Part shown: positions 39,359 through 42,304 of the stretch, piece by piece
Numbering within the stretch: position 1 is the stretch's first letter
How the letters are laid out: the number at the start of each line of letters is the position of its first letter
From: Dictyostelium discoideum
Taxonomy: Eukaryota
Length of the DNA stretch: 64,000 nt
Reading direction: 5' to 3'
Assembly: GCA_000004695.1 (NCBI GenBank)
Contig: CM000153.2
Coordinates: 160,001 to 224,000, forward strand
The notes under the pieces: generated by a model
What the model saw: only the letters and a program-made list of their open reading frames with translations
Told to the model about the DNA's origin: nothing
The model's database searches: none
Program-made: the position numbers and the translations under genes

Positions 39359-39919
39359 GATTTTTATTTCTTCTTTTTTTTTTTTTCCAAAGGACAAAAG
39401 CACTTCCACTATTTTAGAAAACAAAAAATAAAAAAAAAAAAAAAAAAATAATTATTCATCATCCCAAACAGCAAAAAAAAAAAAAAAAAAAATATCTAAT
39501 TTTTTTTTTTTTAAATTATTTTTAATTAAATTTTATTTAATTAAAAGACGTTACTATTTTCTTAGTTTTCTAAAAAAAAATAAAAAATAAAAAATAAAAA
39601 ATAATTTAAATTCTGTATAAAATAATCTGGAATCAAAATAATATCTGTATTTATATCTAAACCAAAATAATTATTAAATTTTAAAAAATGAAATTCATAA
39701 ATAAAACTGTTAATGGATAAAAAAAAAAAAAAAAAAAAAAAATATTGATATTCGTTTTTTTTTTACCTAAAAGCGGTGTTATTCCGAGCTTCGTTTTTTT
39801 TTTTTTTTTGATATAAATAAACTATTGTAGTATACAATTAGTATGTTATTTTTATTTATTTATTTTAGGTTTTTTAGTTTTTGTGAATTTAAAATAGTAT
39901 GTTATTTTAGATTAGGTAA

Positions 39920-41972
39920 TTAATAATTAATTGGTGGTGTAATTGTTGGAATTGGTTCATTTGTGTTTATGCTCCATTCTTTTTTAAATTTTTTGATGGT
40001 TTCGGACCATTGGGTTTCTTTTTGAGTTTTTGTGAGGTTGTTTTTAATTGAGTATTGGTTAAAGTTTGATAAAGTTCTTGAATATTCCAATCTTATTAGC
40101 TTGTGCCATTTTGATTTTAATATATCATAATCTAGTGTTGTGTTGTTTATTTGGTTGTTCCAATTATCAATTGATTGAGTTATATTGATGTCAAATAATG
40201 ATTTGCATAACCATATCCATATTTGTTGAATAACTAATGAGATTATGTTCCAATATGCATGTGTTCTGACTAGATCAAGATTTGTGTTTATATAATTCCA
40301 GTTGAACCTGTATTTTTTATATTGTGCGTTTTCTGCAAAATGAAAATTAATATTGATAGTTGGATCTGGTTTAAATGCTTTGTTGTTTGTTTGTGGTTTA
40401 TAAATGAGTGTGTATAATTTTGTTGTTTGGTTTTTTGTTAGTGACCAGTTTTTGTTTCCATTGCAATTTTTATATATAAAATATTTTAATTTGTCGTGGT
40501 TAATGAAGTTGATTGTGTGCTGACAATTGAAGAACAAATGACCATAGGGATCATTATTCATTTCATTGTTGCAAATGGGGCAAACTTTGTTGTGTAGATG
40601 ATTAATCGGAAGACATCTAGCATGGAATCTTTGCATTGTATCTCGGCCTTTTGGATCTTTTAATTTTTGAATTTTGACAAAAAGTTGGTCGTATGTGTAT
40701 TTCCATAATAGTTGTATTGATTGTTGGTGCGAAGTAAGAAGTAGATCTGAATATTTCTTGCCAATATAGTCTTTTGATTTGCATTGGTGATTGTTTAGTA
40801 TTGTCGAGTAGATTTCTTTGAGTGTTGGTGGTAGTGAAATATTATTTGTGTTTAATGTTTGAGAGGGTTGGTTTTTTGTTAATATTGGTTGTAGGATTTG
40901 AACTTTATCTTTTAGATGTCCAATTTGAGTTGCATAGTTTTCCCATTCTTTTTTGATTTTTATAAGGTATGGAGAAGAGATTGATTTGTTGATGATTTGA
41001 TCCATCCAACTTATCATGTATATTGAATTGTTTGCAGATTTATGCATTTGTAAAAATCTGTTGTATATCCAAATCTTTTGAGCAACTTGTCGTAATTGTA
41101 TATTCCACATACCCCAACCACCTTCTTTTAATGGTTTTAATGATCTATCATAACACATCAAAGGTATTTTTGCACGTGAATGGATGGTTGATGTGTTTTT
41201 TTCAATGGAATTGGTATCGAGAGTTGGTGATTCAGAATTTGCGGGAGAATTCATAAACCATGAGATTAATTTATTAATTTGAATTTCTTCATCTTTTGTA
41301 AATTCTTCAAGGTATGATAAATATGTTATTGGTGATAGTGAGTAGGTGTTTATGATGGTTGTTTTTGTTTTTAATGTTGTGCCACTAGTTTTCCATAGCA
41401 CTAATGATTTAATCAGTGTTTTCATTGTTTCTGGTAATTTCCTATGTAAACCATTATGATTAAAGAAATAGCCAAGAACTCTTTCTGATTGATCTTTTTT
41501 GGTTATTGGAATTCTTTTTGATTGTGGAATGTTGTTTATTATGTGTTTATCAGTGATTTTGTGGGGGTTGATTTCTATTATTGCACTTTTGTCAAAATTT
41601 AATGATGATGATGTTGAAGCGCAGAAATTATCGAAATGTTTGATTGATTGTTGTTGTTGTTCGTAGTTGATGTTGTATGTTGTAGAGTCGTCTGCAAATT
41701 GGGTAAATTTAATTTTAATTTGTGGATTGGGTGAAATTGGTAATCCAATTATTGAATTGTCTGCATTTATTGTTCTTGCTAATATTTCAATTACAATTAC
41801 AAATAAAGTGGCTGAGATTGGGTCACCTTGTTTTACACCTCTTTTAATATCGAATTTTCTGGTCGTTTTACCATTAATTGAAATTTTTGCTTGTGAGTCA
41901 GATAATAGCTTGTGGATTAAATTTATTAATTTTATTGGTATACCAATATGAATTAATGTTCTTTTAATGCTA
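39920..41972 (-). CDS. Retrotransposon ORF2 (reverse transcriptase plus C-terminal zinc-knuckle region), 5'-truncated by the assembly gap
   Basis: See the mobile element entry above. The frame stays open from 41972 to 39920, and the ORF track lists only the Met-initiated tail 39920..41425. Confidence 0.7.
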
Positions 41973-42072
41973 NNNNNNNNNNNNNNNNNNNNNNNNNNNN
42001 NNNNNNNNNNNNNNNNNNNNNNNNNNNNNNNNNNNNNNNNNNNNNNNNNNNNNNNNNNNNNNNNNNNNNNNN
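41973..42072. other. Assembly gap (100 N)
   Basis: A run of n characters. The true retrotransposon length, and whether ORF1 and ORF2 are intact, cannot be read from this sequence. Confidence 1.
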
Positions 42073-42304
42073 TAACTGTAATTCAGTTGAGTGATCATCA
42101 GCCATTGTTGAAAAGTATATAGGACGATAGCCCTTGCTTTAATGAGCAAAAAAAGGGTAAAATTAAGAGGAATGAATGTGGCGGTGAAGATATAACAGTG
42201 ATTTATTTATTATATGTATAAATTCTCGTTTATTTCTTTGTTTTTTCGGTTTTTTTTTTCGTTTTTTCACCGAGCTTCGTAAAAATACTAATATTTTTTG
42301 CAAC

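Follow-up and report, generated by a model that had tools for sequence, protein, structure and literature searches.

TRE3 retrotransposons of Dictyostelium discoideum insert 40–150 bp downstream of tRNA genes, with which they share their orientation, and depend on the B box (PMC5911963; PMC5006619); TRE5 elements insert on the upstream side, about 44–54 bp from the tRNA gene, and are transcribed in the opposite direction (PMC5911963). The gene model DDB_G0291686 carries the dictyBase product name 'TRE3-B ORF2' (PMC12405889 Table 2). The YrlA RNAs are Y-RNA-like tRNA mimics of bacteria (Rfam RF02553; Chen et al. 2014, PMC4201824), and their V region starts with a conserved YUAY (PMC4201824). 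According to one paper, the vaults of Amoebozoa include TEP1, a protein with a TROVE domain.

The locus described here lies within a window (the whole stretch of DNA analysed) of 64 kb from chromosome 4 of strain AX4, where a TRE3-B element is located on the minus strand between a CfaA-family gene and the carboxylesterase gene DDB_G0283087. The TRE3-B family and the gene model of this copy are already known and annotated. We report how the element is bounded, how it compares with other TRE3-B copies and wild isolates, and what the RNA gene at its 5' end looks like.

Results

The element and its target-site duplication

The features of the locus are collected in Table 1. The 11-mer CCGAGCTTCGT was found exactly twice on the + strand of the window, and the pair brackets a minus-strand non-LTR element ending in A15. 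For matches with one mismatch or less, the expected number in dinucleotide-preserving shuffles was 0.03, and the observed count was reached in 0 of 100 shuffles, in agreement with the initial annotation, which held that the repeat was unlikely by chance. Its coordinates for the feature (39785–42292) started one base off and ended 12 bases past the second 11-mer, although the repeat itself was real; the minus-strand oligo(A) tail does abut the 11-mer as it claimed, with T15 on the + strand directly after 39784–39794. A runs terminate all other TRE3-B copies examined too. The 11-mer (ACGAAGCTCGG) was also considered as a part of the element consensus; it proved to be flanking DNA that is missing from that consensus, as other TRE3-B copies carry different duplications, i.e., TCATCATTTC for the copy at locus L001, and TCTAATTGGTAA and ATGCATCCA for the copies at locus L013.

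Table 1. Features of the TRE3-B insertion and of the neighbouring RNA gene, in window coordinates.
Feature	Position	Strand	Basis or remark
Target-site duplication, poly-A (3') end copy	39784..39794	.	CCGAGCTTCGT, exact 11-mer
Oligo(A) tail	39795..39809	-	T15 on + strand; direct reading
TRE3-B 3' UTR (110 nt)	39810..39919	-	sits between ORF2 stop and A tail
TRE3-B ORF2, C-terminal 683 codons to gap edge	39920..41972	-	second half of RT with FADD; Cys/His domain
Assembly gap, 100 N	41973..42072	.	sole N run; stands for 2,947 bp
TRE3-B ORF1, first 11 codons (MADDHSTELQL)	42073..42105	-	starts at 42105, enters gap
TRE3-B 5' UTR (164 nt)	42106..42269	-	begins TGAAAAAACGAAAAAAAAAACCG; agrees with 5' ends of L001 and L013 copies
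Target-site duplication, 5'-end copy	42270..42280	.	CCGAGCTTCGT, exact 11-mer
T6 run, Pol III-type terminator	42305..42310	-	direct reading; directly after RNA gene
Permuted tRNA-like (YrlA-like) RNA gene, probable integration landmark	42311..42444	-	Rfam YrlA, consensus fold
D arm	42345-42361	-	A-box-like TAGCTCAGCGG
Closed acceptor hairpin	42362-42377	-	
T arm	42378-42394	-	B-box-like AGTTCGAGCCT at 42381-42391

The minus-strand ORF runs without interruption from the gap edge (41971) to the stop at 39920; its 683 aa include FADD and CPICN...HLFFNCQH, and Pfam RVT_1 matches this visible part of ORF2. The 3' UTR was 98–99% identical to that of other copies, and the 5' ends of the TRE3-B copies (window, L001, L013) were variable, as is usual in non-LTR elements. 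In a gap-free assembly of the same locus (L002), with 99.75–99.79% identity to the window on either side of the gap, one continuous element of 5,322 bp lies between 11-mers at 3909 and 9242, confirming the suggestion that the gap conceals a full-length element of about 5 kb; the missing sequence takes in the bulk of ORF1 and, in ORF2, the endonuclease domain together with the first half of the RT. Both ORFs, previously noted as open as far as they could be read, are intact in L002 (ORF1, 402 aa; ORF2, 1,275 aa) and overlap by 4 nt, with ORF2 in the -1 frame. Pfam placed Exo_endo_phos at residues 8–231 and RVT_1 at residues 502–732 of ORF2, which also has the C-terminal Cys/His (zinc-finger) domain; ORF1 had no Pfam match. 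The element thus has the architecture of a TRE3 non-LTR retrotransposon: two ORFs, an ORF2 with AP-endonuclease, RT and Cys/His domains, and an oligo(A) end. The copy is apparently intact and may be active, to judge from its intact ORFs only.

Family assignment and empty sites

The visible part of ORF2 was 100% identical to the AX4 gene model DDB_G0283079 and 97% identical to DDB_G0291686, falling with the latter into the same 90% cluster; the ORF2 proteins of other TRE families showed 42–50% identity. ORF2 therefore groups by pairwise identity with the named TRE3-B references, and the earlier designation, a TRE3-type element, can be narrowed to subfamily TRE3-B.

The empty site, which had been proposed as a check in other strains, was found uninterrupted and with a single 11-mer in two wild isolates of D. 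discoideum: it reads ...TTTATT CCGAGCTTCGT AAAATGC... in L004 and CCTAGCTTCGT in L003, and both sequences are collinear with the empty AX4 site as reconstructed. Since both isolates carry one 11-mer at the empty site, the 11-mer is a true target-site duplication, and the insertion is recent and polymorphic. The copy was 99.3–99.5% identical to another TRE3-B copy and its presence varies between strains, consistent with the young age originally suggested for it.

Insertion geometry here and at other TRE3-B copies

The 5' end of the element is 41 nt downstream of the RNA gene (42311–42444) and in the same orientation, and the distance from the B-box-like motif of that gene to the duplication is 100 nt. 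At locus L013, a full-length TRE3-B next to tRNA-Phe(GAA) and a 5'-truncated one next to tRNA-Asp(GUC) each lie 42 nt downstream of the tRNA gene and share its orientation; at these two canonical tRNA genes the B box is 51–54 nt from the duplication. A B-box-like motif at the canonical spacing, 54 nt from the duplication in the window, was looked for and none was found. The TRE3-B copy in L001, which has a clean duplication, had no tRNA gene, YrlA-like gene or B-box-like motif upstream; untargeted TRE3-B insertions therefore occur. The upstream, opposite orientation placement of TRE5 elements does not apply in the window, where the element is downstream and co-oriented. Because there is no canonical tRNA gene in the 64-kb window, the placement downstream of a tRNA gene is realized only by way of a tRNA-like stand-in: the TRE3 geometry claimed by the initial annotation agrees in orientation and distance, but the neighbour, a permuted tRNA mimic, is no tRNA gene.

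Structure of the neighbouring RNA gene

Read along the minus strand (42311–42444), the modules of the RNA gene follow one another as the 5' strand of an outer stem, T arm, closed acceptor hairpin, D arm and outer stem, and then the T6 run, and a T run after the gene is conserved in the orthologues. The outer stem is made of GAGGG/CCCUC plus UAUCGGU/ACCGGUA, and the UUACUUCG block is present. The sequence first described as tRNA-like does contain T and D arms (42345–42394, minus strand), but it is not a canonical tRNA gene, and the canonical cloverleaf order (acceptor, D, anticodon, T, acceptor) is not found in it. ARAGORN, by default and with introns allowed, detected 0 tRNA genes in the window (3 tRNAs were detected in L013 as the positive contrast), the Rfam tRNA model gave no match to the RNA gene even at E<=10, and Rfam gave nothing at gathering score. 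A 90-nt 'tRNA-Pro' returned by ARAGORN with thresholds lowered to 80% was regarded as spurious.

In permuted tRNA genes of the Cyanidioschyzon merolae type the half with the T arm and the acceptor 3' strand precedes the half with the acceptor 5' strand and the D arm. Compared by description, the RNA gene shares with them a T-arm half upstream of the D-arm half; it differs in that it has no anticodon loop, its acceptor loop has 4 nt and is without a removable linker, and its ends form a long imperfect stem. With no anticodon loop, a closed acceptor and paired ends, the RNA would be unable to mature to a decoding tRNA.

Comparison with YrlA

The only notable Rfam family match was YrlA (RF02553), at 27.5, 31.7 and 37.7 bits, below the gathering score of 69; bacterial copies adjoining Rsr or RtcB scored 27.6–49.8 bits on the same model, likewise below threshold. 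Reciprocally, a model derived from the Dictyostelium sequences (R1) found Ro60/RtcB-linked bacterial Y-RNA-like genes at 40–64 bits. The likeness to YrlA consists of the 5'/3' stem that encloses, in order, the YUAY V region, the T arm, the closed acceptor-like hairpin (AS) and the D arm. The YUAY is present as UUAC in the block CGGUUACUUCGUUUA, which is invariant in 4 of 5 orthologues (AUAC in L049), and the UACUUCG block also occurs in Ro60-linked Bacteroidota copies. The differences are a eukaryotic nuclear genome, a Pol III-type T run after the gene, a score below gathering, an inexact version (GGCAACGGG) of GNCGAAN0-1G, and no adjacent Ro60 gene. GNCGAAN0-1G, the proposed Ro60 contact near the 5' end, is replaced by a 5' strand that reads GAGGGCAACGGGAU; the Bacteroidota copies deviate from it too (GCCGUAA). 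Within about 4 kb on the same strand there was no Ro60 (Rsr) gene, the flanking genes being the CfaA-family and carboxylesterase genes, and a tblastn search of the window and of all Dictyostelium loci with four bacterial Rsr proteins gave a best match of only E=3.8. From its sequence, the landmark gene looks like a circularly permuted tRNA mimic with an architecture like that of the bacterial YrlA RNAs. In the literature searched on Dictyostelium with permuted tRNA, Y RNA, Ro60 or TROVE, no earlier report of such an RNA was found, and as far as could be found no YrlA-type RNA has been reported in a eukaryote.

Conservation of the RNA gene

The RNAalifold consensus has 29 pairs, with 0 broken in the 5 orthologues; all 145 of 145 pair-cells are kept, with 2 compensatory, 7 wobble-type and 0 disruptive changes, and 8 of 500 shuffles did as well. 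A 34-nt 5' block with UUACUUCG is unchanged in four sequences. Covariation in four sequences was not significant. The MFE fold of the window RNA alone was no better than that of shuffled sequences (z = -1.6), so that single-sequence energy lends no support. D. citrinum, D. firmibasis and D. dimigraforme lack the gene in the syntenic interval, and a metagenome scan with the T-arm/hairpin/D-arm pattern gave 0 matches. A 21-mer from the invariant block did occur in four human-gut metagenome contigs; this was a chance match within a single bacterial gene, and nothing tRNA-like follows it.

Discussion

We are highly confident that a full-length TRE3-B entered this site with an 11-bp duplication, and that the permuted tRNA mimic adjacent to it is the probable landmark. 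Judging from the established behaviour of TRE and L1 elements, entry would have been by target-primed reverse transcription: the ORF2 endonuclease would nick one strand, the freed 3' OH would serve as primer for cDNA synthesis starting at the poly(A) end, and the duplication would result from a second nick, 11 bp away on the other strand. The insertion point at this site was probably chosen by way of the tRNA-type B- and A-box sequences and the T-run terminator of the adjacent gene; because it has these sequences, the candidate landmark is probably occupied by TFIIIC.

Other readings of the element itself carry very little weight. Membership of a different clade, be it TRE5, some other subfamily of TRE3 or a non-LTR family with no relation to these, is very improbable; TRE ORF2 proteins share so little identity (about 42–50%) that family names need a reference, but the 97% identity to the dictyBase 'TRE3-B ORF2' model provides one, and the best named relative is TRE3-B, with the next families at the low level just given. 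Even less credible is a reading of the 11-bp repeat as chance or as element termini, with different elements on the two sides of the gap and no single insertion. The assembly gap leaves two elements as a prior possibility, and nothing further speaks for them; the gap-free L002 and the empty sites of L004 and L003 refute both the chance repeat and the two-element reading, and the low chance expectation and the differing repeats at other copies stand against it as well. It is also unlikely, to a lesser degree, that insertion beside the tRNA-like gene was coincidental and the tRNA-like sequence irrelevant to target choice. The L001 copy, and the spacing of 100 nt from B box to duplication as compared with 51–54 nt at the two canonical tRNA genes, would be expected of such a coincidence; yet in the window, which has 0 canonical tRNA genes, model R1 matches nothing but the RNA gene, the element is found 41 nt downstream of that gene in the co-oriented geometry seen at tRNA-Phe, at tRNA-Asp and in the literature, and a random insertion would fall no more than about 100 bp away and in the right orientation with a probability of roughly 100/64000 x 0.5.

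The nature of the landmark is the more debatable matter. We consider it possible, and put it forward tentatively, that it represents a nuclear Pol III-type homologue of YrlA, maybe from Bacteroidota-like soil bacteria, under structural selection in D. discoideum/D. cf. discoideum. We doubt, somewhat more strongly, that the sequence is a rearranged and decaying tRNA pseudogene (e.g., joined halves), functionless and only superficially like YrlA. The YrlA scores (27.5–37.7 bits) below the gathering score, the lack of any Ro60/TROVE gene found nearby, the absence from the syntenic interval of the three other species, and the weakness of covariation statistics with 5 orthologues only would all suit decay. 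A pseudogene would not be expected, though, to keep every pair-cell with no disruptive change (a result equalled in 8 of 500 shuffles) or an invariant 34-nt block; moreover, the Ro60-/RtcB-linked bacterial RNAs share with it the UACUUCG block and the outer stem, which lie beyond the tRNA arms, the Dictyostelium model finds the bacterial RNAs over their full length but not canonical tRNAs of the same loci, and genuine rsr-linked bacterial copies themselves score just 27.6–49.8 bits on the Rfam model.

As compared with D. discoideum TRE3-B in general, the element shows no structural difference: its ORF2 is 97–100% identical to dictyBase models, the two ORFs, the endonuclease-RT-Cys/His order and the oligo(A) end are alike, target-site duplications are of about 9–12 bp, and a co-oriented Pol III-type gene lies a few tens of bp upstream of the 5' end. 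What is unusual is a landmark other than a canonical tRNA gene. TRE5-A (DRE) and the other TRE5 elements have the host, the L1-clade architecture and the use of Pol III genes as landmarks in common with it; their ORF2 is only distantly related, and the A/B/C modules of TRE5-A were not seen in the element of the window. The nearest solved relatives of its ORF2 are human LINE-1 ORF2p structures (8sxt, 8uw3, 8c8j; E about 1e-42). LINE-1 has the same endonuclease-RT order and, by inference, the same target-primed reverse transcription with staggered nicks leading to a duplication; it differs in that it is not known to target Pol III genes and in having an ORF1 unrelated to that of TRE3-B.

Because TRE3-B has been described and this copy is already an AX4 gene model, the retrotransposon itself adds little, apart from the 2,947 bp with which the 100-N gap of AX4 can be closed, and from its being, as a full-length and strain-variable copy with both ORFs intact, a candidate source element and strain marker. 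The locus is a natural example of TRE3 integration beside a non-tRNA gene. If the reading of the landmark were true, TRE3 elements would read Pol III landmarks besides true tRNA genes, and, if confirmed, the site would offer a one-gene natural test of TRE3 recognition, i.e., of B box and TFIIIC versus tRNA identity. The RNA would likewise mark, if true, the first report of a YrlA-type RNA from a eukaryote and be a candidate ligand for a TROVE-domain protein, e.g., the vault/telomerase protein TEP1; and if its expression were confirmed, a bacterial and phage RNA family would reach into eukaryotes by way of a YrlA-like mimic in an amoeba, bringing the protein partner of this RNA into question.

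The TRE3-B element and its target site

The window has a G+C content of 22.4% and holds one run of N (100 N, 41973-42072), which interrupts a minus-strand element flanked by two copies of CCGAGCTTCGT, the only two on the plus strand; the chance expectation from shuffles, with one mismatch tolerated, was 0.03 matches. The parts of the element are listed in the table. The initial annotation had described them accurately, except that its start coordinate was one base late. A further copy of the 11-mer with one mismatch, CCGAGCTTAGT, has nothing associated with it and is probably a chance occurrence.

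A look-up of the carboxylesterase protein led to the same locus in another D. discoideum assembly that is gap-free (L002, GCA_054883475.1); on either side of the gap it matches the window at 99.75-99.79% identity, and the differences are almost all homopolymer lengths. Between the 11-mers at 3909 and 9242 of L002 lies a single continuous element of 5,322 bp, so that the 100 N in the window stand for 2,947 bp. Its ORF1 (402 aa) and ORF2 (1,275 aa, in the -1 frame, with its start 4 nt ahead of the stop of ORF1) are both intact, bearing out the suggestions that a full-length element lay behind the gap and that both ORFs were open. ORF2 carries the Pfam domains Exo_endo_phos (residues 8-231) and RVT_1 (502-732), and its nearest solved structures are those of LINE-1 ORF2p (E about 1e-42); ORF1 gave no Pfam match, as is reported for TRE ORF1s in the literature (PMC5006619).

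The ORF2 fragment was 87-99% identical to D. discoideum proteins and at most 50% identical to other dictyostelid RT proteins. All 683 of its residues matched the partial AX4 model DDB_G0283079 at 100% identity, and the flanking carboxylesterase was 100% identical to DDB_G0283087; the window thus comes from chromosome 4 of AX4, where this copy has been annotated as a gene model. DDB_G0291686, which is 97% identical to the fragment and falls in the same 90% cluster, has its dictyBase product printed as "TRE3-B ORF2" (PMC12405889, Table 2, 2025). Judged by this cluster and product name, the subfamily is TRE3-B, and the element is an ordinary member of a known, annotated family.

Other TRE3-B copies in the gap-free genome have different flanking repeats (TCATCATTTC at locus L001; TCTAATTGGTAA and about ATGCATCCA at locus L013), and the 11-mer thus lies outside the element. 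Two further D. discoideum assemblies, those of wild isolates, lack the element in the orthologous interval and have the site once: L004 (GCA_054859355.1) reads ...CAACTTTATT CCGAGCTTCGT AAAATGC... and L003 (GCA_054859385.1) reads CCTAGCTTCGT. With the element and one of the two 11-mers taken out, the window sequence is collinear with both. The uninterrupted site that the initial annotation had proposed seeking in other strains is present in both isolates; by these empty sites and the differing repeats of other copies, the 11-mer is a target-site duplication, and the insertion is polymorphic within D. discoideum. The element is 99.3-99.5% identical to another full-length TRE3-B copy and so is young, as had been surmised; overall, the earlier observation and its interpretation both stood.

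Three tandem FNIP-repeat paralogues (447-477 aa) are also found in the window; the second shares about 98% DNA identity with the third, which suggests a recent tandem duplication.

Coordinates of the element, the RNA gene and neighbouring features (window positions unless a locus is named)
Feature	Position	Strand	Remarks
11-mer, two copies	39784-39794; 42270-42280	+	CCGAGCTTCGT
Oligo(A) tail	39795-39809	-	T15 on + strand, right after first 11-mer copy
A-rich leader, 164 nt	begins 42269	-	first part of element in minus-strand reading
MADDHSTELQL reading frame	ATG at 42105, enters gap	-	second part of element
ORF2 part, 683 aa	41971 (open) to stop at 39920	-	RT motif FADD; Cys/His motif CPICN...HLFFNCQH
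3' UTR, 110 nt, then A tail	past stop at 39920	-	last part of element
11-mer copy with one mismatch	26848-26858	-	CCGAGCTTAGT
FNIP-repeat paralogues	45098-49741	-	three, in tandem
RNA gene	42444 to 42311	-	followed directly by T6
RNA gene orthologue	L003 9320-9467	-	D. discoideum
RNA gene orthologue	L004 9327-9473	-	D. discoideum
RNA gene orthologue	L006 9396-9539	-	D. cf. discoideum
RNA gene orthologue	L049 2353-2492	-	D. cf. discoideum
Second CfaA_B_C paralogue	L005 8719-9424; L006 8281-9463; L008 8714-9424; L049 1066-1855		sister species
tRNA-Asp(GUC)	L013 14418-14490	+	TRE downstream
tRNA-Asp(GUC)	L013 19095-19167	-	TRE downstream
TRE of a different family	L013 15598-19027	-	at tRNA-Asp pair
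TRE3-B copy	L001 7043-13450		GCA_054883475.1, CM142511.1

A permuted tRNA-like gene upstream of the element

ARAGORN found no tRNA gene in the whole 64-kb window, also when introns were allowed, and Rfam gave no match to the window at gathering score. The tRNA-like sequence that the initial annotation had placed upstream of the element is present and co-oriented, but it is a permuted tRNA shape rather than a tRNA gene. On the minus strand, from 42444 through to 42311, this RNA gene reads GAGGGCAACGGGAUAUCGGUUACUUCGUUUAUCAUUUCAACAUGUAGGUC-AUCAG-UUCGAGC-CUGAU-AUAUGG-GUUU-CCAUAU-UA-GCUC-AGCGGUA-GAGC-GACAUUAACACAUACACCGGUACUGCAAUCCCUC. The modules follow in the order T arm, tetraloop-closed acceptor-like stem and D arm, and a long stem of both gene ends encloses all three; read from sequence, the shape is that of a circularly permuted tRNA lacking an anticodon loop. 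In Rfam, the one notable match was YrlA, a bacterial tRNA mimic of the Y-RNA-like type (RF02553; 27.5 bits, E = 7.6e-4 in a 501-nt search); the remaining matches at E<=10 were at chance level (<=13 bits), and the Rfam tRNA model gave none even at that threshold. From the end of the gene it is 30 nt to the duplication and 41 nt to the first base of the element, in the same orientation. The B-box-like AGTTCGAGCCT lies 100 nt from the duplication, versus 51-54 nt at two canonical tRNA genes.

The RNA gene occupies the same place in four other assemblies, two each of D. discoideum and D. cf. discoideum. In D. citrinum, D. firmibasis and D. dimigraforme, the syntenic interval has no RNA gene and is occupied by a second CfaA paralogue. 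This paralogue, which in sister species separates the first CfaA gene from the carboxylesterase, is missing from the D. discoideum strains; D. cf. discoideum has it together with the RNA gene.

A 34-nt 5' block of the gene (UUUGAGGGCAACGGGAUAUCGGUUACUUCGUUUA) does not vary in four sequences. The consensus fold (RNAalifold) has 5 helices and 29 pairs, and all pair-cells (145/145) are still standard pairs across the five orthologues, with compensatory changes in 2 pairs (in the T stem C-G becomes U-A, in the outer stem U-A becomes A-U) and wobble-type changes in 7. Column shuffles did as well as the real alignment in 8 of 500 cases, and slid structures paired 38-56% of cells, in a test that used five related sequences and an alignment fitted to the model; covariation among four sequences had not reached significance. 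Against Rfam, YrlA was the only meaningful match of the orthologues (31.7 and 37.7 bits).

Relation to bacterial YrlA

One genome per prokaryotic species was scanned for the layout of T loop, 5-nt stem strand, 6+4+6 hairpin frame and D arm, yielding 35 loci. Roughly half are tRNA genes in tandem, in which the acceptor strands show no pairing; in the others a tetraloop caps a perfect 6-bp hairpin, and ahead of the T arm most of them have (G)UUACUUCG or AUACUUCG, the block that is invariant in 4 of the 5 Dictyostelium orthologues (L049 has an AUAC form). Ro60/Rsr (TROVE plus vWA_Ro60) or RtcB is encoded beside the RNA in these bacterial loci, the neighbourhood by which YrlA is defined (PMC4201824). 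Genuine bacterial copies score 27.6-49.8 bits on the Rfam YrlA model, under its gathering score of 69, and the Dictyostelium RNA scores within their range. A covariance model built from Dictyostelium sequences only recovered the bacterial RNAs full-length at 40-64 bits, including tandem copies outside the layout-scan selection, and found none of the canonical tRNAs of the bacterial loci and L013.

Counting against YrlA membership, the GNCGAAN0-1G motif has no exact match in the Dictyostelium RNA, and no TROVE gene was found in the window or the syntenic loci. TEP1, a TROVE protein, is reported in one paper to be a vault component in Amoebozoa (PMC3762200). The RNA gene is probably a eukaryotic YrlA-like tRNA mimic, and our literature search turned up no earlier description of an RNA of this kind in Dictyostelium. 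In Bacteroidota and other bacteria (L019, L023, L024, L026, L036, L037, L046), rsr or rtcB is accompanied by two to five YrlA-like genes in tandem; since all of these fall in the same sub-gathering range, the Rfam YrlA model appears to under-cover these lineages.

Integration of TRE3-B beside tRNA and tRNA-like genes

In the literature, TRE3 elements integrate 40-150 bp downstream of tRNA genes, co-oriented with them and in dependence on the B box, and TRE5 elements lie about 50 bp upstream of tRNA genes in the opposite orientation (PMC5911963; PMC5006619). At L013, where ARAGORN detected tRNA-Phe(GAA) and two tRNA-Asp(GUC), a near-full-length TRE3-B starts after its duplication 42 nt downstream of tRNA-Phe, and a 5'-truncated TRE3-B follows one tRNA-Asp at the same distance of 42 nt, each in the orientation of its tRNA gene; these copies confirm the TRE3 integration behaviour of the family. 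The two tRNA-Asp genes are inverted, and each is followed by a common CCGAAGTTCCG motif; the second TRE at this pair has no DNA-level match to TRE3-B. Near the L001 copy we found neither a tRNA gene nor a YrlA-like gene nor a B-box-like motif. This copy adjoins a polyketide-synthase (ketoacyl-synthase) gene, unrelated sequence of about 1.5 kb (around 9250-10750) splits its ORF2, and it looks like an off-target insertion; exceptions to TRE3 targeting thus exist.

The element in the window has both ORFs intact, ends in a poly(A) tail, is bounded by an 11-bp duplication and has an empty allele; as established L1 and TRE biology suggests, it would have entered by target-primed reverse transcription, with the two nicks offset by 11 bp. 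It lies 41 nt downstream of, and in the same orientation as, a gene that combines A- and B-box sequences of tRNA type with a T-run terminator, and TFIIIC or Pol III on this permuted tRNA-like gene may have served as the landmark. The point worth follow-up is the RNA gene beside the element, rather than the element of a known family.
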